NCBI GenBank assembly: GCA_038889235.1
Contig: JAWAHN010000001.1
Span: 674,499 to 706,498 of the forward strand
Length of the DNA stretch: 32,000 bases
DNA from: Candidatus Jordarchaeales archaeon
GTDB lineage: Archaea > Asgardarchaeota > Jordiarchaeia > Jordiarchaeales > Freyrarchaeaceae
Direction of reading: 5' to 3'
The position numbers were made by a program, and so were the translations under genes. The notes beneath the pieces are model-generated. The model did not search any database. It was given only the letters and a program-made list of their open reading frames with translations, and had not been told where the DNA came from. Shown here piece after piece: positions 14,531 to 31,273 of this stretch (positions within the stretch are counted from its first letter, which is position 1; each line of letters begins with the position of its first letter).

Positions 14531-15415
14531 ATGAAAGGTAGGTATGTAAAATACGCAAACAAGGTTTTAGAGGTGTTCTGCAATGGAAAAGACGCATTGA
14601 TATTTGCTCCCCTACTGAAGTTACTTGTGGAGCACATGGAAGAAGTATGTGAAATGTGCATGGAAAACAAAATGGTCTGCACACTGCGGCCTATGTGTCC
14701 TGAAAGAAGATGGCTTAGCTTTCTCATAATGATAGGAGCACAAAAAGAGGATCTTCCAGCTTTTTGTTTCAAAACCAGGATTAATGAAGTTAAAGCGATA
14801 ATAGAGAGGACTAGCCATATTCATTTCAGCGATGCCATACTTCAAATAGACGTTTTTCTCAATATTCTTTCTGGCGGAAGGTCACGCTTAATAGAGCCTT
14901 TCAGAAGCGGTGATCTTGAAAGGTTTATTGAGGGGCTTGAGGCAGAGTTTAAACGCCACACAAAAAACATTTCGTTGCTTGTTAATGATAGATGTATCTT
15001 CATCTTGGTGGACGAAAACCTAGTAATGATGTATTTGGATAAAGGGTTTGTCTTGATAAATCCTGAGGAGAAAGTGTTTGATTCCGCAGAAGAATTAGTT
15101 AATTTAGTGCTTGCTTTTAAAAATCATTATGATGTACCAATTCAAGTGGAGGAAGAATTTGCCGGGTTCCCTCGAATTACGGTAAGAATTCCTCATAAAC
15201 CTTATGTAGAAGATTTAGTGAACAAATTCGTTGAAAAAATGGTTAAAAACGCCGGACACGTAAATTTCTTCCCTGAAAATGATAGCTTAATGTTAGAGGT
15301 AGAATTTGACTTAGTCAATTCCCCTCTTAAGTTTAGGAAGGTTCTTCACGTATTAAACGATATTAAATCACTCTACCAGGAAGTGATTGGTAAAGGCGAG
15401 GGGGGTAAGACTTGA
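14531..15415 (+). CDS. Hypothetical protein with N-terminal Cys cluster (possible metal or Fe-S binding)
   Basis: CEMCMENKMVCTLRPMC (C-x2-C-x6-C-x5-C) plus PAFC. The stop overlaps the next start (TTGA). Confidence 0.65.
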   Translation: MKGRYVKYANKVLEVFCNGKDALIFAPLLKLLVEHMEEVCEMCMENKMVCTLRPMCPERRWLSFLIMIGAQKEDLPAFCFKTRINEVKAIIERTSHIHFSDAILQIDVFLNILSGGRSRLIEPFRSGDLERFIEGLEAEFKRHTKNISLLVNDRCIFILVDENLVMMYLDKGFVLINPEEKVFDSAEELVNLVLAFKNHYDVPIQVEEEFAGFPRITVRIPHKPYVEDLVNKFVEKMVKNAGHVNFFPENDSLMLEVEFDLVNSPLKFRKVLHVLNDIKSLYQEVIGKGEGGKT

Positions 15416-18400
15416 CCGAGAAGGTTGTGTCACTTATTGCTAGTAGGCTTGGACTTAAAGATAATGAAGCCAGGGTCTATGAAATACTTCTTTCTTATAG
15501 GGTTCTTACAGCAGGAGAGATATCGTACTACACGTCTTTTCCAATATCCGAAGTTAATGCAATTCTCCACTCTCTCATAAACAAGGGGTTAGTTATTCGT
15601 ATACCGGGAGTTGTCGAAAAATACATGCTCATTACTCCTTTTAAGGTGTTTTTCGAGACTGCTGGTGAGACTTCGAAAGTTGCTAGAGGAGTAGAGGAGA
15701 GACTGGAGAAGTACTCGGAAGTTATTAAAACAGACTTGGGAAGCTTCATTGAAAGTTTTAAGTCCAAACTAGAAAGTTTTGTGAGCAGAGAAACGCAGAA
15801 TATAAAAAGTAAAGCCGGTGAGACTAGTGCTCTCTTGGAAGCGCTGACTACACAAGAAAAGGCGAAATTGGGTGACGCAGCAAAAGACGTAGATTCTTGC
15901 TTCGAAGTAGAGTTAGAAACACATAGAAAACTTAGTGAAGATTTATTGGCCAACTTTAGAGGTGAAGTAGAAAAGAAAATAGAAGATTCCTTAAAAAAAG
16001 TAGAGGGCTCTGTCAAACAGAGCGCGGTAAAAGCGTTGAGCGCCTTTACATCCACTATGGGTGACTTGAGCGCTCAGTTAGGGAGTTTTGAAAAGAAGAT
16101 ATTAAACGAGATTACCGTGATATCGAAGGAAGTTGACTCGCTTCCGGAAAAAATTGCTGAAAAAATAACTGATGCCAAGAAAGAGTTCGATACTAAAGTA
16201 AGAAACGTTTTAGAGAGTTCCAAAGAGCAAACTTCGAGTGTTGTAAACGCGTTAAAAAATGAGATTAACGAGCATGTGAAGGCTGTGGAAAGGCTTACGT
16301 TTGAAAGCATTAGAAGGGACGCCTTAAAGTTGAGGGAGCATGTTGAAAAAATAGGACGAGAGCTAGAGACGTTTATAAATGATTCGACGTCAAATACCGC
16401 GAAAAGCGTTTCATCCATTTACACGGCGGTTTCAAAACCTCTTCGATCCTTAAAGGTAGAGTATGAAAGAGAGATGCAAAAAATTTTAGAACAGATGGGT
16501 AGACTCACGGATAGCAGCGTTCGCCGTTTTTCTTCGATTATTGATGAAACGAAAACTAAAGTGGCTGAGCAGATTAAGTCATACGTTGAACTCCAAAAGG
16601 ATGTTTTAGACGAATTTAAGTCAAAAATAGATGGACATATATTATCCAGTATTAAAGAGTTCAGTACGGCTTCTTCTTCGATAAAGGAGCGTTTCAAAGA
16701 AGTTGTAATGGAGGAGAAAAGTACTACAAGTAAAGTTTTTGAGTGGACAAGAGAGGTGGTTAAGTCACTTATTCTGGAGCACACTGACGTGGTAAAGAGC
16801 ACTTTAAGGGAGATTGAAAAGAAACTTCACGACGCATTGATCATGGAAAGTGAAAGTGAGGAAAAAGATTACTCCAAATTCAAAGACACATTCTCTTCCA
16901 TGCTGGAAGTTTCTAAGCGAGAAATACTGGAAGTAGCAAAAGTAACGTCTAGAAGCGTGCTCAGAGAGATACATACTCAGACGGATGTAATTATAAGTGA
17001 ACTGAGAAAGTTAAGGGAGAAAGTTTTCGAAAATATTAAGGAAGAATTGAGGAAAATCAAGTGGGAGGCTGAGGAGGCAAGGAGGAGCGTTGAAAGGCTT
17101 CTATCTCAACGTGTCGCATACATGGAGGAACAAGCTGAGCTCATGAGGCAACGATTAGACGAAACAATCAAAAAGAAGCTCGAGGAGATAAACTCCAATT
17201 TTGGAGTTATAAGGGCAGGATTTCTTGAAGTGATGGACGGAATATTGGCTAGGTTTGCCGAAATTGTGGAAGAAACCAAGAACAGTTTTTCGCTATCAAT
17301 TAATTCTCAATTCTCTTTCTTTAAGGAGAGCCTCGAGAAACTTGACCTAGCGCTCACAGAAGAACTGAAACAGCAAGTGGAAGCCGCCAAAGCGGAGGCC
17401 AACGAGTTTCTCTTAAGTTTTTCGAAAGAGTTGGAGGGAAGAATCCTAAAGGTGGAGGAGCTCACGAAGCAAATCATCGATAACATAGAGGGCACATTTA
17501 AAAAGCAGGAGAAGATTAGTAGGAACCTTAGAAACACAGTTTCGTCTTACTTTGTCCAAGAGTTGAGACGATACATAGATGCGTTCTCTAATACTACCCT
17601 ACTGCTTAACGAGCGTTTGACTTCGCTCTTAGATGCGAGAATAAAAACCCTGGAAAGACTTAGAAGCAGGCTCGAAAAGGAAATTTCATCTTTAATTGCT
17701 AGCAAAGAGGAGCTAATAGAGGAGAAAAATGCCAGTTTAAGAGACACAGTGGATGCGCACATTTCGGAGAGATACAAAGAGTATACAGAGTTGCTGGAAA
17801 ACACTATTAGGGAAATTGAAAAGATGCTTTACGAGCATGTAGAGCGATTCAAAGGTCACATGGAGGAGGTTTCAAGGAAGCTGGCAGAAACCGTCAGGGA
17901 AACTCTGGGAAAGATATCTAAGATTTCCGATAGTAGCACAAGGGAGTTGGCGGCTTTGCTGAGCGTTGAACAAGAAACCGTTGTTAACGAAACGAAAAAT
18001 TTGATTGAGGAAGCAAATAAGACATTTGAACAATATGTTAGAGCTCTGAGAAATAGCATTGCAACTTGTCTAGATAATTTAGTGGAAGAAGTGGCGAAAC
18101 AGATAGAGAGCCTGAAAGATAAAAGGGATTATCTTGCGACAGCATTGAAAGGCAGTATGATAGCGAGTATTGAACAATTTGAAACTACACTTAAAGAATT
18201 AGAGAGCGATTTAACTTTAGGCATGGAAGGTGAATTAAAGAAAGTTGATTCATTGACTGCACAGCTAGAAGTAAGGTTGCAATCTTTGCTTGATAAGCTG
18301 AAAAGTGACGGATGGGCATATTCGGATTACTTACTAGAAGAAAGCGCAAATATACTTAAGAGAAGCGCTGAAAGTGTGAGAACTATTCTGGAGTCTGCAA

Positions 18401-19338
18401 GTCGAAAAATTACTGAAATCATAGTGGAAGACAAAAAGGTTTTGGGTTCGAAGACTGATGAAGCAAGAAACTTGATTGAAGGAATAACGAAGGAGACAAT
18501 AGAAGAAATTGAGAGCGCGGCGCGTAGAATACATGACGAGATAACTATTCTCGTAAGTAGGTATCGTGAAGAGACGGAAAAAATTATGCATGAAACCAGG
18601 AAGCGCATAGTTAGTGAGTTTAAAAGATGCGTTGAAAAACAAGAGAAGGACGTTGAGGATGTTAGCCGCAACATAACGGAAATGCTTGCCCAGTTAGTGG
18701 AGAGCTACGAAAAAATGCTGAAGGAGTTCAGCAACGATTTGTCGGTTCATGTAAGCGAGTTCTACAAGAGAGTGGTTGAGAACGTAAGAGGAACAACGGA
18801 TACTCTATGTGAAAGCATCAGAAAGTTGCTAGAGGAGTTAAAGTATACTGAGGAAATTATGCAACTAACGTGGAGCGAAGTAACAAAAGCGCCTTTGGCT
18901 TTAGAAAAAACCTCGTTCGTAGTGACACGAGAAGCGGCGCGCGTACGAGTAAAGGACATGGTGGCACGGGCTAAAAAGTCACTAGTAGTTGTGGCTCCTA
19001 ACCTGGAGGAGCTCCCGGTGCAGGAAATACTAGAATTGAAGCCTTCGGTAAGAGTATATCTGTTTACAGATTTCGAATTACCAAGGCAAATTGACACGTT
19101 GAGGAGTTTGGTGAGTAAAAGTGGTGTGCGTTTGTGGAGAAGAGAAGAAAAGGAATTTTTCATATGTCTGCGAGACGATGAAGAAATGTTTATCGCTCCA
19201 GTGTCAAAAGAGGAGCCTTTAGTAGCTGTGGTGAGTGAAGAACAAAGTTACATCGAAGCGTATAAACGTTCACTGCTACCTCTCATTAGGTCAACGTCCA
19301 AAGAAGTGAGATTGGAAGATATACAGAGCGCCAAGTGA
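15412..19338 (+). CDS. TrmB-family protein: N-terminal wHTH, about 1090-aa helical/coiled-coil insert, C-terminal TrmB effector-like (PLD-like fold) domain
   Basis: LGLKDNEARVYEILL...LTAGEIS...LHSLINKGLV...Y...P is the TrmB N-terminal domain. The C-terminal MVARAKKSLVVVAP...VRVYLFTD...FFICLRDDEEMFIAP is TrmB C-terminal-like. The middle is E/K/S/L-rich amphipathic helix. Confidence 0.8.
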   Translation: MTEKVVSLIASRLGLKDNEARVYEILLSYRVLTAGEISYYTSFPISEVNAILHSLINKGLVIRIPGVVEKYMLITPFKVFFETAGETSKVARGVEERLEKYSEVIKTDLGSFIESFKSKLESFVSRETQNIKSKAGETSALLEALTTQEKAKLGDAAKDVDSCFEVELETHRKLSEDLLANFRGEVEKKIEDSLKKVEGSVKQSAVKALSAFTSTMGDLSAQLGSFEKKILNEITVISKEVDSLPEKIAEKITDAKKEFDTKVRNVLESSKEQTSSVVNALKNEINEHVKAVERLTFESIRRDALKLREHVEKIGRELETFINDSTSNTAKSVSSIYTAVSKPLRSLKVEYEREMQKILEQMGRLTDSSVRRFSSIIDETKTKVAEQIKSYVELQKDVLDEFKSKIDGHILSSIKEFSTASSSIKERFKEVVMEEKSTTSKVFEWTREVVKSLILEHTDVVKSTLREIEKKLHDALIMESESEEKDYSKFKDTFSSMLEVSKREILEVAKVTSRSVLREIHTQTDVIISELRKLREKVFENIKEELRKIKWEAEEARRSVERLLSQRVAYMEEQAELMRQRLDETIKKKLEEINSNFGVIRAGFLEVMDGILARFAEIVEETKNSFSLSINSQFSFFKESLEKLDLALTEELKQQVEAAKAEANEFLLSFSKELEGRILKVEELTKQIIDNIEGTFKKQEKISRNLRNTVSSYFVQELRRYIDAFSNTTLLLNERLTSLLDARIKTLERLRSRLEKEISSLIASKEELIEEKNASLRDTVDAHISERYKEYTELLENTIREIEKMLYEHVERFKGHMEEVSRKLAETVRETLGKISKISDSSTRELAALLSVEQETVVNETKNLIEEANKTFEQYVRALRNSIATCLDNLVEEVAKQIESLKDKRDYLATALKGSMIASIEQFETTLKELESDLTLGMEGELKKVDSLTAQLEVRLQSLLDKLKSDGWAYSDYLLEESANILKRSAESVRTILESASRKITEIIVEDKKVLGSKTDEARNLIEGITKETIEEIESAARRIHDEITILVSRYREETEKIMHETRKRIVSEFKRCVEKQEKDVEDVSRNITEMLAQLVESYEKMLKEFSNDLSVHVSEFYKRVVENVRGTTDTLCESIRKLLEELKYTEEIMQLTWSEVTKAPLALEKTSFVVTREAARVRVKDMVARAKKSLVVVAPNLEELPVQEILELKPSVRVYLFTDFELPRQIDTLRSLVSKSGVRLWRREEKEFFICLRDDEEMFIAPVSKEEPLVAVVSEEQSYIEAYKRSLLPLIRSTSKEVRLEDIQSAK

Positions 19339-19795: not shown

Positions 19796-20407
19796 TTAAT
19801 CCACTTTTAATTCCTCAATGCTATTTTTGGTTATCTTAAATATCTGGATGGGGCCTCCTGACGCCGTATCGCGTGATCTGGCCGCTTTTATTGCTCGTTC
19901 GGCTAAAGCGACCGCTTCATCTACGGTTATGCCTTCTTTGTATTCGTCTTCTAAAACTCCAAATGCTATTACTGAGCCGGACCCCGTTGCACCGAACTTA
20001 TCTTCTTCTATTATGCTCCCTAAGGGGTCTAGGGTGAATATGTGGGGGCCTGTGTCGTCCACCCCACCTAAGATTAACATGCTGACATATGGGAAGAGCC
20101 TGTTTTGGAAGAGGATTAATGATGCGAGGCGGGCTGCGGCTTTAACAGAAACATCCCTTTTGAGCTCTAGCTTCAAGAGTGCAAGGTTTGCTTTTAGCAC
20201 ATCCACGACATGCTGGCAGTCTGCAACGGAGCCACTTATCGTTACTGCAATTCTATCTGCAATTTTGAATATCTTTGGAGCAGAAGTGCTTGCAATAATA
20301 TTCCCCATTGTTGCTTGAGATTCCGTCGCGAGCACAACGCCATCTTTGCATACAATTCCGACGGTTGTCGTACCACTCATAAAAACTTTTGAATTATCTC
20401 GTTGCAT
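19796..20407 (-). CDS. psmB: Proteasome subunit beta
   Basis: 12-aa propeptide then G|TTTVGIVCKDGVVLATESQAT, GSVAD, GGVD, ATGSGS, RDTASGG. SD GGGGGT. Confidence 0.97.
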   Translation of the reverse strand: MQRDNSKVFMSGTTTVGIVCKDGVVLATESQATMGNIIASTSAPKIFKIADRIAVTISGSVADCQHVVDVLKANLALLKLELKRDVSVKAAARLASLILFQNRLFPYVSMLILGGVDDTGPHIFTLDPLGSIIEEDKFGATGSGSVIAFGVLEDEYKEGITVDEAVALAERAIKAARSRDTASGGPIQIFKITKNSIEELKVD

Positions 20408-20470
20408 GGGGACCCCCTTCGCCTTCCCTTCATTGAACTTAAAGCATTAAGTCCAAAGAATAAATGAAGG

Positions 20471-20478
20471 TATATAAA
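20471..20478 (-). promoter_or_regulatory. Probable TATA box of psmB
   Basis: TTTATATA on the minus strand, preceded by purine-rich GAAGAAGAG (BRE-like), about 64 nt upstream of the start codon. Confidence 0.5.
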
Positions 20479-20540
20479 CTCTTCTTCATCAGTACAGTAA
20501 CCAAGAAATGTAGTTTATAAAGTAAATTTACAGGATGTTT

Positions 20541-20631
20541 TGGTGGGCGGGCCAGGATTTGAACCTGGGACCTCCACGGTGTCAACTTCGCCCTTTCTGT
20601 GTGGCGTCATAACCAGCTAGACTACCCGCCC
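20541..20631 (-). tRNA. tRNA-Val(GAC) with one 14-nt non-canonical intron (30/31); CCA encoded
   Basis: Minus strand reads GGGCGGG TA GTCTAGCTGGTTATGAC G CCAC[ACAGAAAGGGCGAA]G TT GAC AC CGTGG AGGTC CCAGG TTCAAAT CCTGG CCCGCCC A CCA. Spliced length is 77 nt with a perfect cloverleaf. Confidence 0.93.
20587..20600 (-). other. tRNA-Val intron at position 30/31
   Basis: Central helix CGCC/GGCG with 3-nt bulges AC^A and AA^G. Confidence 0.85.
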
Positions 20632-20667
20632 ACAAGTGTAAAATGTGATTGGTGGACCCCGCGGGAC

Positions 20668-20689
20668 TTATTCAGCTTTTTGTGAGCCT
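20668..20689 (-). other. tRNA-Ala intron 3 (58/59, 22 nt)
   Basis: A GGCT CACAAAA AGCT GAAT AA. Central helix (A or G)TTC/GAAT, bulges AA^A and AA^G. Removal restores the 7-nt T-loop TTCAAGT. Confidence 0.78.
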
Positions 20690-20694
20690 TTGAA

Positions 20695-20712
20695 TTCGCG
20701 GCCTCCTGGGCT
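20695..20712 (-). other. tRNA-Ala intron 2 (53/54, 18 nt)
   Basis: A GCC CAGGA GGC CGCG AA. Central helix CGCG/CGCG, bulges GG^A and AA^T. Confidence 0.85.
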
Positions 20713-20732
20713 CCCGCGGCCTCCGCGATGCC

Positions 20733-20754
20733 GACGCGCCTCCTTTTCGGAGGA
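20733..20754 (-). other. tRNA-Ala intron 1 (33/34, 22 nt)
   Basis: T CCTCC GAAAA GGAGG CGCG TC. Central helix CGCG/CGCG, bulges TT^T and TC^G, perfect 5-bp intron hairpin. Confidence 0.88.
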
Positions 20755-20815
20755 AACGCGGTGCTCTACCAGGCTGAGCTAGGGGCCCACCGTGATTGAG
20801 AAAATAATTGAGGGC

Positions 20816-20830
20816 ATTTAAGTATTTTTC
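20816..20830 (-). promoter_or_regulatory. BRE + TATA promoter of the Ala-Val tRNA pair
   Basis: Minus strand GAAAAAT-ACTTAAAT lies about 28-42 nt upstream of the tRNA-Ala 5' end. Only 18 nt separate the two tRNAs, suggesting a dicistronic transcript. Confidence 0.65.
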
Positions 20831-21060
20831 GGGGGGATTTGAGGACAAGATAACTATTGGAAAGGTCTTGGAAGTGATTTCGCCTTTGGATTGAATGATT
20901 GATTTTTACAAGCTTTTTATGCCTTTTTAACTACAGTTGATGCTTAGTAATAGGGGGGCGGTAACAAACGTGCAATATCATCTTTAGCTACTTGAGAATT
21001 TAAAATGACAACTTTGTTGGTGTTTAAATATGAAAGATGAAGCTTTGATTGTGGTGGTTG

Positions 21061-21423
21061 ATGGAAGGTACAAGTCCCTTTTACTGGTGGATTGTGAATC
21101 CAGGGACAAACCTTCTACTATCGTTCATTTTCTCGTTCCTATCTTTTGTTGGAACAATATGTTTCATAGCTAATATTGTTTTTCTTTCGATAAGCGAGAG
21201 GAACAGGGGTAGATACGTTATTGGCGCAATTTTCTCCTTAATAGTCATAGGATGCTGTTTGAAATGGGAGTGGTTCTTAGTTTCTATCGGAAATTTGGCG
21301 AGTATGCTAGCTAGCGGGATAGGGAATATAATAAACCAAGCAATCTATTACTGGTACTTGTATAGTTTTGGAGAGAAAATGAATGAAAGCTTGTTTTTCG
21401 GACCGTTGATTCACCGTTTGTGA
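21061..21423 (+). CDS. Hypothetical membrane protein (about 3 TM)
   Basis: Hydrophobic, Trp-rich ORF. ATG 21061 follows GGTGG (the ORF track starts at TTG 21049). Confidence 0.55.
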   Translation: MEGTSPFYWWIVNPGTNLLLSFIFSFLSFVGTICFIANIVFLSISERNRGRYVIGAIFSLIVIGCCLKWEWFLVSIGNLASMLASGIGNIINQAIYYWYLYSFGEKMNESLFFGPLIHRL

Positions 21424-29613: not shown

Positions 29614-31086
29614 TTAACCCTTGACGACACCTATTGGTCTAAGTTTGGCTACTAGGGATGCAATGCCTACCTTATGGGAAACGTCGACAACCAAATCGAC
29701 GTTTTTATACGCATCTGGCGCTTCTTCACTTATGACAACTATACTGGCAGCCTCTATGAGTATACCTGATTTTTGAAGCTCATTCTTGATTTTTTCACCC
29801 CAAAACTTCTTCTTTGCGTCAGCTCTGCTAAGCCGCCGGCCTGCACCGTGAGCCGTTGAACCGAAACTTAGTTCCATGGATTCAGGGTTTCCTCGTAAGA
29901 CATAACTAGCAGTACCCATGGTTCCAGGTATGAGAACCGGTTGCCCAATGTCTTTGTACTTTGACGGTATATCTGGATGACCTGGCGGGAAAGCTCTAGT
30001 AGCGCCTTTTCTGTGGACACATAGGACTTTGCTTTCGCCATCAACACGGTGTCTTTCAAGCTTAGCGATGTTGTGAGCCACATCGTATACTACATGTATT
30101 CCAAGGTCTTCGGAAGAAGAGGAGAAGACTTTTTCAAACGATTCGCGCACCCAGTGTGTTATGCACTGCCTGTTTGCCCAAGCAAAGTTTGCAGCCGCCG
30201 CCATCGCCGCCAAGTAATCTTCACCCTCCCTGCTTTTTCCTGGAACAGCCGCCAGCTCTCTGTCTGGAAGCGAGATACCATACTTTCCCATTGCGTGCTC
30301 CATTATCTTTAAATAATCGGAGCATACCTGATGACCTAAACCACGTGAACCGGTATGTATTAGTACTGCTATCTGTCCCTCAAATAATCCCATTTTCTCG
30401 GCTGCCCTCGCATCATAAACTTGCTCAACATATTGTATTTCAAGGAAGTGGTTACCGCTACCTAGTGTCCCGAGTTGAGGGGCACCACGATCCTTTGCCT
30501 TAGAGGAGACCTTGCTCGCATCAGCACTCTTAAGACACCCCTCCTCCTCACAAAATATTCGGTCTTCATCCCAACCGAAGCCTTTTTCGATCGCCCAATT
30601 CACACCGCTTTCAAGTACTTCATTTAGTTCAGAGTGAGAGACTCTAATCTTGCCCTCAGAACCCACACCACTAGGAATCTCTCTGAATAAAACTGCTAGT
30701 AACTCTTTGAGCTTGGGAATAACTTCTTTCTTCGAAAGATTTGTCCTGAGAAGACGAACACCACAATTTATATCGTAACCAACCCCTCCTGGAGAAACCA
30801 CACCATCCTCTTCAAAGTCGACTGCTGCAACTCCGCCTATGGGGAAACCATATCCTTGATGAGCATCAGGAAGAGCTATGGAGTTTTTCTGGATTCCCGG
30901 TAGGCACGCTACATTCATAGCTTGAACTAATGTTTGGTCTTTCTTCATTCCATCGAGAAGTTCCTCATTCGCGAAAATTATGGCCGGAACACGCATACAC
31001 TTCTTGGCATCCTTCGGTATTTCCCATATTAGGTTAGATCTTTTTTTCAGAGGAACCTGGGACACGCCCACCACCCTTCTTTCCAT
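29614..31086 (-). CDS. rtcB: tRNA-splicing ligase RtcB
   Basis: PDAHQGYGFPIGGV, GYDINCGVRL, GTLGSGNHFLE, HTGSRG, DVAHN, HRKGATRA, STAHGAGR, EEAPDAYK. No intein. The start is uncertain (ATG 31086 preferred over the ORF-track 31128). Confidence 0.97.
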   Translation of the reverse strand: MERRVVGVSQVPLKKRSNLIWEIPKDAKKCMRVPAIIFANEELLDGMKKDQTLVQAMNVACLPGIQKNSIALPDAHQGYGFPIGGVAAVDFEEDGVVSPGGVGYDINCGVRLLRTNLSKKEVIPKLKELLAVLFREIPSGVGSEGKIRVSHSELNEVLESGVNWAIEKGFGWDEDRIFCEEEGCLKSADASKVSSKAKDRGAPQLGTLGSGNHFLEIQYVEQVYDARAAEKMGLFEGQIAVLIHTGSRGLGHQVCSDYLKIMEHAMGKYGISLPDRELAAVPGKSREGEDYLAAMAAAANFAWANRQCITHWVRESFEKVFSSSSEDLGIHVVYDVAHNIAKLERHRVDGESKVLCVHRKGATRAFPPGHPDIPSKYKDIGQPVLIPGTMGTASYVLRGNPESMELSFGSTAHGAGRRLSRADAKKKFWGEKIKNELQKSGILIEAASIVVISEEAPDAYKNVDLVVDVSHKVGIASLVAKLRPIGVVKG

Positions 31087-31273
31087 TTTAACCTTTTTCC
31101 ATTTTTTAAAAGTTATGTAGACGCTCACTACCGCGTATAGTAACTAGACAAGGATTGATAAACTGTGGAGAAACGTGGGAATTTTTGAGGATACCCGTGT
31201 AGGAGACATTACGAGTGAGGATAAATAAAAGTATCGCGCTTCAAAAGGAAGGTAAATATGCGATGCGGACAGC

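Follow-up and report, generated by a model that had tools for sequence, protein, structure and literature searches.

A tRNA-Ala(GGC) gene with three bulge-helix-bulge introns, two of them in the T-arm, in a hot-spring Asgard archaeon of the class Jordarchaeia

Can a 139-nt stretch of DNA that tRNA finders pass over, and that yields a cloverleaf once three separate segments are cut out, be the gene with which an archaeon decodes its alanine GCC and GCU codons? We addressed this question for a locus of a hot-spring Asgard archaeon of the class Jordarchaeia (GenBank assembly GCA_038889235.1), using a 32,000-nt stretch of contig JAWAHN010000001.1 (positions 674,499 to 706,498, forward strand) that we call the window. 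In its unspliced form, the locus is missed by ARAGORN with and without intron mode, the default run calling no tRNA in the whole window, and equally by the Rfam tRNA model, both at the gathering threshold and at E ≤ 10, the model's only match in the window being the neighbouring gene at 20631..20544. A first-pass annotation, made from the letters alone, had expected standard finders to fail here, and in this it was right. We conclude with high confidence that tRNA-Ala(GGC) is encoded here by a functional gene, the only one of its kind in this archaeon, and that its three introns are spliced by the endonuclease EndA and the ligase RtcB. The gene itself is real; that EndA and RtcB splice it is, judged from the genes and motifs that the genome contains, almost certain.

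The gene lies on the minus strand and runs from 20788 to 20650, from the 5′ start GGGCCCCTAGCTCAGCCTGGTAGAGC to the 3′ end GGGGTCCACCA, as a 139-nt precursor body that includes A73 and an encoded CCA (20650–20653). Exon 1 (20755–20788) supplies the 5′ strand of the acceptor stem, the D-arm, the 5′ strand of the anticodon stem, U32 and U33, and is followed at site 33/34 by the 22-nt intron 1 (20733–20754). Exon 2 (20713–20732) carries the GGC anticodon, A37, U38, the 3′ strand of the anticodon stem, the variable loop and the 5′ strand of the T stem, up to the 18-nt intron 2 at site 53/54 (20695–20712). Exon 3 is a 5-nt micro-exon, UUCAA (20690–20694), which takes T-loop positions 54–58 in the ARAGORN fold of the spliced RNA; beyond the 22-nt intron 3 at site 58/59 (20668–20689), exon 4 (20650–20667) completes the molecule with G59, U60, the 3′ strand of the T stem and the 3′ strand of the acceptor stem with U70, A73 and CCA. 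Cutting out the 22, 18 and 22 nt leaves a 77-mer that ARAGORN calls as tRNA-Ala(GGC) with all four stems intact, which upholds the strand, the coordinates, the three excisions and the 77-nt cloverleaf with U33 and G3:U70 that the first-pass annotation had proposed.

In the spliced 77-mer, the acceptor stem is GGGCCCC/GGGGUCC with the G3:U70 identity pair, and A73 precedes the CCA; a 4-bp D stem is followed by an anticodon stem CCGCG/CGCGG with the loop UUGGCAU, containing U33 and A37, and by a T stem GCGGG/CCCGC, with G53:C61, that carries the T loop UUCAAGU. The features by which a tRNA-Ala is identified, namely G3:U70, the discriminator A73 and the alanine anticodon GGC, are thus all present. 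The D loop has nine bases, one of them extra (17a), because of which the linear boundaries 34/35, 54/55 and 59/60 correspond to the Sprinzl sites 33/34, 53/54 and 58/59 used here. Upstream of the gene on the same strand, 28–42 nt before G1, an AT-rich element (20816–20830) consisting of a BRE-like GAAAAA and then a TATA-like TACTTAAAT can be read as a putative archaeal promoter.

We tested each intron against a strict bulge-helix-bulge (BHB) rule that asks for a 4-bp central helix, each strand of which is followed on its 3′ side by a 3-nt bulge, with the cut falling after the second bulge base. Under this geometry, the first bulge takes two bases from the end of the exon and one from the start of the intron, and the second takes two from the end of the intron and one from the start of the exon that follows; the central helix forms between the four bases just ahead of the first bulge and the four intron bases just ahead of the second. 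In each of the three introns, the central helix is paired at 4/4 positions and both 3-nt bulges are correctly placed, so that the earlier reading of a 4-bp central helix and proper bulges for every intron survives the strict rule in three of three cases. Intron 1 has the central helix CGCG/CGCG, the bulges UU|U and UC|G, the inner helix CCUCC/GGAGG and the loop GAAAA; intron 2 has CGCG/CGCG, with C48–G51 on the exon side, the bulges GG|A and AA|U54 and the inner helix GCC/GGC; and intron 3 has AUUC/GAAU, the bulges AA|A and AA|G and the inner helix GGCU/AGCU. The inner helices thus measure 5, 3 and 4 bp in introns 1, 2 and 3, and the outer helices formed with exon bases measure 1, 0 and 2 bp; with outer helices this short, the introns are HBh′-type motifs. 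Motifs of the HBh′ type belong to a relaxed class that needs a broad-specificity enzyme.

Loose BHB-like motifs are common, occurring at 0.061 per nt-strand for lengths of 10–60, and we rejected the presence of a BHB motif by itself as evidence, since chance alone would place about 8.5 of them in 139 nt. At a prescribed site and length, the rate at which the BHB geometry fits is about 0.0012, and the three excisions dictated by the cloverleaf fit in 3/3 cases. We also scanned the genome blindly with a pipeline that proceeds from a 7-bp acceptor pairing through up to five strict BHB excisions and a T-arm filter to ARAGORN. Its first solution at this locus consists of exactly the same three introns, and over the genome it returned 35 ARAGORN calls at 22 loci, against 0 in the reversed genome; this strict-BHB census is a partial one, several of the 22 loci being resolved only in part.

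BLAST and pattern searches identified orthologues in Candidatus Jordarchaeales archaeon JZ-1_202007_bins_29 (G003), another species of the same genus, and in a genome of another genus of the same family (G004), and the locus is identical in strain-level assemblies. Both orthologues keep three introns at the same sites 33/34, 53/54 and 58/59. The exons match those of both relatives at every position but 59, which differs in G004. The introns have diverged in sequence, with lengths of 23/23/22 nt in G003 and 22/20/21 nt in G004, their motifs being kept by paired changes, as in the inner helix of intron 1, which reads CCUCC/GGAGG here, CCCCC/GGGGG in G003 and CCCCUU/AAGGGG in G004. Both T-arm introns occur in 10/10 Ala genes found in the four other genomes of the family (GGC, UGC and CGC being among the anticodons decoded), and the micro-exon UUCAA is invariant in every family Ala gene that has both. 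Over the nine distinct family Ala sequences, 95.8% of helix cells are paired, compared with 31–49% when the partners are slid; four pairs have changed in both of their bases, none of 500 shuffles attains the covariation score, and the inner helices are among the parts that covary.

The same Ala(GGC) gene with a 33/34 intron is also found beyond the family, in Ca. Jordarchaeum madagascariense, a Jordarchaeia archaeon and Freyarchaeia-1, which belong to the same order, as well as in JZ-1 bins_29 of the same genus; with Ca. Jordarchaeales, Ca. Jordarchaeum madagascariense and Freyarchaeia-1 as its closest named carriers, the gene places the genome in the class Jordarchaeia. In the sister family, represented by Freyarchaeia-1 and Ca. 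Jordarchaeum madagascariense, the Ala(GGC) insert lies exactly at 33/34 and some members also have one at 53/54, so both sites must be old. The class comprises exactly two families in the genome set compared, matching a preprint on Asgard tRNA introns (10.64898/2026.10.13.758758). The strict 4/4 rule gave no solution for the Ala(GGC) genes of the other family of the order or for one UGC gene of G004; by eye, these have relaxed or order-dependent motifs. In the sister family (L009/L033; Freyarchaeia-1, CP147778.1, ~1501–1690), Ala(GGC) carries an insert of 34 nt at 33/34 and an intron of 14 nt at 37/38, to which Freyarchaeia-1 and Ca. J. madagascariense add a 31-nt intron at 53/54 and a further one in the T stem. 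There, UUGG/CCAA, the central pairing of the canonical intron, can form only once the 33/34 insert has been removed, the pairing before removal being AAGG/CCAA (2/4), which implies ordered splicing in the sister family.

Within the genome studied here, which is 95% complete, we found three Ala-type genes, GGC at this locus, UGC at C1:1088321 and CGC at C1:481105, and no second GGC anticodon arm, spliced or unspliced. An intact, intron-free Ala(GGC) gene elsewhere, which would have spoken against the first-pass reading, was likewise sought and not found in this 95%-complete genome. In standard archaeal decoding, it takes the GGC anticodon to read the codons GCC and GCU. The locus is therefore to be annotated, with its three introns, as the sole decoder of GCC and GCU in the genome, one that standard tools miss. 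The Ala(UGC) and Ala(CGC) genes (C1:1088321–1088413 and C1:481105–481197) are identical except for the anticodon and have a 16-nt D-arm intron only, with the T-arm intact. The missing T-arm introns in these two genes suggest that, in this species, the adjacent pair was lost cleanly in one go, or that gene conversion took place.

Interruption is the normal state of tRNA genes in this genome. Nearly every other one is also interrupted, the partial census including a Leu(CAA) gene with three introns and a Cys(GCA) gene with four, and among the 12 loci that the Rfam tRNA model reaches, Arg(CCG) is the sole uninterrupted gene. This Arg(CCG) gene (C6:391–468), which stands alone among the tRNA genes found in being uninterrupted, lies on a contig of 5.7 kb whose GC content is 41.6% as against ~48%; the contig could thus be of foreign origin, belong to a mobile element or have entered the bin as a contaminant. 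The intron mode of ARAGORN additionally called a tRNA-Thr(GGT) with a 1333-nt intron at C3:113954–115379, which is either spurious or a truly large insert. Searched against the genome with blastn-short, the three introns of tRNA-Ala(GGC) find only themselves, the next matches being 12–13 nt long with E > 0.1.

The register of intron 1 decides which anticodon the mature tRNA carries. A cut one base further 3′, at 34/35, would also produce a cloverleaf, now with the anticodon UGC in place of GGC, and would rest on four nominal central pairs (GCGU/GCGU). Two of these would be G–U pairs in a central helix flanked by neither an inner nor an outer helix, whereas the 33/34 register combines CGCG/CGCG with a 5-bp helix and is conserved in G003 and G004. 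The shifted cut would moreover duplicate an anticodon for which a separate gene already exists at C1:1088321, and established knowledge of archaeal decoding implies that GCC and GCU codons would then be left without their usual decoder. We regard the 34/35 cut as very improbable and retain 33/34, with GGC as the mature anticodon.

The T-arm poses a problem of its own, in that the boundary of intron 3 is degenerate in sequence because of an A-run. Sites 56/57, 57/58 and 58/59 all give an identical mature RNA, and it is BHB geometry alone that selects 58/59. The motifs at 53/54 and 58/59 also overlap: the central helix at 58/59 joins the final base of intron 2 to U54-U55-C56 on one strand, and that last base and U54 are at the same time bulge bases of the 53/54 motif, so the two motifs share bases and cannot both be fully formed at once. 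Both circumstances would suit a different route through the T-arm, with a boundary at 56/57 or 57/58, or with the whole 45-nt insert removed in one step and the micro-exon supplied in some other way. Such a route, however, has to reckon with the fact that 58/59 is the only site that puts both cuts into 3-nt bulges around a 4-bp helix, which it does in 9/9 family members, and with a T loop that needs UUCAA, a sequence present nowhere else in the insert; nor does the overlap stand in the way of splicing at 53/54 and 58/59, since the removal of either intron leaves the other motif intact (GUUC/GAAU or CGCG/CGCG). We therefore hold other T-arm routes to be very unlikely, and take the excision of two separate introns, at 53/54 and 58/59, as the preferred reading.

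If two introns are excised at sites that share bases, they are probably removed in successive rounds. At this locus, the first A of the intron 3 central helix is the last base of intron 2; once intron 2 is out, G53 replaces it, and the helix becomes GUUC/GAAU with a G–U pair, and if intron 3 leaves first, the 53/54 motif CGCG/CGCG is untouched. Either order of removal is thus predicted to work in this tRNA-Ala(GGC). The Ala genes on contigs C2 and C30 of G004 (UGC on C2) differ in this respect, their 58/59 helix having 3/4 pairs before removal of the 53/54 intron (AUUC/GGAC) and 4/4 after it (GUUC/GGAC), which hints that the 53/54 intron is removed before the 58/59 intron in those genes. Taken together, these observations allow a joint reading that we offer tentatively and that is more doubtful than the conclusions above: the T-arm pair would be interlocked around the 5-nt micro-exon, so that EndA would have to act twice and the RNA to refold between the two steps, with an order that is obligatory in the G004 C2 and C30 genes; the pair would be ancestral to all Ala isoacceptors of the family, and this species would have lost both introns jointly from its UGC and CGC genes. 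If so, the clean joint loss from UGC and CGC would fit recombination with a spliced-RNA copy or gene conversion.

RNA data were compared over positions 20300–21100 as assembled contigs from two RNA libraries and two DNA runs. No spliced joint was recovered from those contigs, a kind of data in which small structured tRNAs are rarely assembled. The runs that contain this DNA are hot-spring metagenomes. One contig from a sediment metatranscriptome, belonging to a ~95%-similar strain, covers 20604–20781 in unspliced form and may stem from DNA carry-over. Its differences are all confined to the spacer and the introns, namely G2>A and C6>U within intron 3 and one extra G by which the helix of intron 2 becomes longer. 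Thermodynamic folding is uninformative here, as the predicted minimum-free-energy fold of the naked precursor (−56.6 kcal/mol) differs from the BHB conformer (−41 to −42 kcal/mol).

Could the locus instead be a decaying tRNA pseudogene, its three inserts unremoved junk and its GCC and GCU codons read by another tRNA? Spliced RNA that goes unseen among the assembled contigs, and a locus that standard finders do not recognise, are what such decay would lead one to expect; decay would hardly be expected to preserve the exons unaltered in two genera whose introns diverge by compensatory changes, to keep BHB geometry at all six splice sites, or to strike the sole GGC gene of the genome, and interruption is no sign of decay where nearly all other tRNA genes are interrupted as well. 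A pseudogene is accordingly most improbable, and we return to the reading of a functional gene, whose processing would involve the following neighbours and enzymes.

A tRNA-Val(GAC) gene (20544–20631, minus strand; 52.1 bits with the Rfam tRNA model and also found in the blind census) lies 18 nt downstream of tRNA-Ala(GGC). It has a 14-nt intron (20587–20600) in the anticodon stem (~30/31), with the BHB helix CGCC/GGCG, a 3-bp outer helix and almost no inner helix. As tRNA-Val(GAC) follows after only 18 nt, the two genes are probably co-transcribed as a dicistronic precursor. The Ala(GGC)–Val(GAC) pair is kept in G003, in G004 and in a distant Asgard family (G028, L017). In that distant family, the Ala(GGC) gene is without the 33/34 intron and has inserts of other kinds. 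Elsewhere in the window, a plus-strand gene (15412–19338) encodes a protein of 1308 aa whose N-terminal TrmB-type winged helix precedes ~1200 residues of apolipoprotein-like coiled coil; it adjoins a proteasome subunit gene, an arrangement conserved in strain-level relatives.

A gene for the tRNA-splicing ligase RtcB (29614–31128, minus strand; 504 aa; Pfam PF01139, E = 5.4e-180) is located inside the window, 9 kb from the Ala–Val pair. The Pfam match begins at residue 69, which leaves either the annotated start or an N-terminal extension in doubt. The genome also encodes two EndA paralogues with the tRNA_int_endo domain (PF01974). The first, of 196 aa (C1:1056164–1056754), is most similar to the catalytic α subunit of Aeropyrum pernix EndA (3P1Z_B, E = 4e-47), with an alignment that spans it from end to end; the Tyr/His/Lys triad is present, and its K51 aligns with K44 of the Crenarchaea-specific loop (CSL). 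The second, of 195 aa (contig C3; locus L058, 1474–2061, minus strand), has a Val aligned at the catalytic His. The EndA of this genome is accordingly predicted to be of the (αβ)2 type with an L1 loop, the broad-specificity kind, which gives a sequence-based prediction for the EndA architecture that the first-pass annotation had asked about. Kaneta et al. 2018 (PMC5829648) described K44 in the CSL and reported (αβ)2 EndA with an L1 loop in Asgard archaea; in A. pernix, K44 confers the cleavage of relaxed motifs (PMC5829648). The likeness to the A. pernix enzyme (PDB 3P1Z, 3AJV), also (αβ)2, extends to the catalytic Tyr/His/Lys, the loop lysine equivalent to K44 and a second paralogue without the His, all read here from sequence. 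Unlike in A. pernix, the β subunit is closer in sequence to the EndA of M. kandleri and M. jannaschii than to crenarchaeal β subunits.

From the anatomy, motifs, conservation and enzyme genes that we observe, we infer the steps of transcription, cleavage and ligation, as we do the order of removal discussed above. Transcription, probably together with the downstream tRNA-Val(GAC), would yield a precursor with introns at 33/34, 53/54 and 58/59, in which each intron and its adjoining exon bases would fold into a BHB motif of the HBh′ form. The heterotetrameric (αβ)2 EndA would then cut within both 3-nt bulges, and RtcB would ligate the exons, the 5-nt micro-exon UUCAA among them, into the 77-nt tRNA with G3:U70.

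Valentin-Alvarado et al. 2024 (PMC11291895) found introns in 92–95% of the tRNA genes of Freyarchaeia and Atabeyarchaeia, often at non-canonical sites, with several introns in more than half. A survey of 90 Asgard genomes by Goswami et al. (preprint, October 2026; 10.64898/2026.10.13.758758) put the number of intervening sequences in Jordiarchaeaceae and Freyrarchaeaceae at 2.0–2.4 for each tRNA gene, with up to five per gene and the T-arm as a preferred intron site. In the light of these two studies, the suggestion in the first-pass annotation that three introns in one tRNA would be out of the ordinary in Asgard archaea does not stand, and its picture of multi-intron tRNAs as mainly a matter of Thermoproteales is out of date; the novelty that it had made dependent on such introns not yet being catalogued for the lineage also falls away, since the survey (10.64898/2026.10.13.758758) catalogues them. 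The tRNA-Ala(GGC) locus is a further member of the published class and no surprise for its lineage. It resembles the published tRNA genes of the class in having several short (~20 nt), non-canonical BHB introns that favour the T-arm and are missed by standard tools, in the company of two EndA paralogues and of introns that are not shared between tRNA types, and it differs from them in nothing of kind. The overlap of the T-arm motifs and the 5-nt micro-exon are not discussed in the main texts of PMC11291895 or 10.64898/2026.10.13.758758. These overlapping splice motifs around a 5-nt exon are the only slightly new angle, and they offer a compact substrate for studying ordered splicing by an Asgard EndA in vitro. 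Otherwise, the locus adds one comparatively supported case to the Jordarchaeia/Freyarchaeia tRNA genes riddled with non-canonical introns and handled by (αβ)2 EndA.

Outside the Asgard archaea, the closest parallel is with the multi-intron tRNA genes of Thermoproteales, reportedly the work of Sugahara in 2007 and 2008 and of Fujishima in 2010. According to a review (PMC4090602), a single gene there can hold as many as three BHB/HBh′ introns, with 53/54, 56/57 and 59/60 among their non-canonical sites; 53/54 and 59/60 have also long been known from Crenarchaeota. The tRNA-Ala(GGC) gene shares with them introns at non-canonical sites and an (αβ)2 EndA with the Crenarchaea-specific loop; it belongs to a different phylum, and whereas the intron families of Thermoproteales recur across tRNAs, a sign of transposition, the three introns described here have no other copy in their genome.
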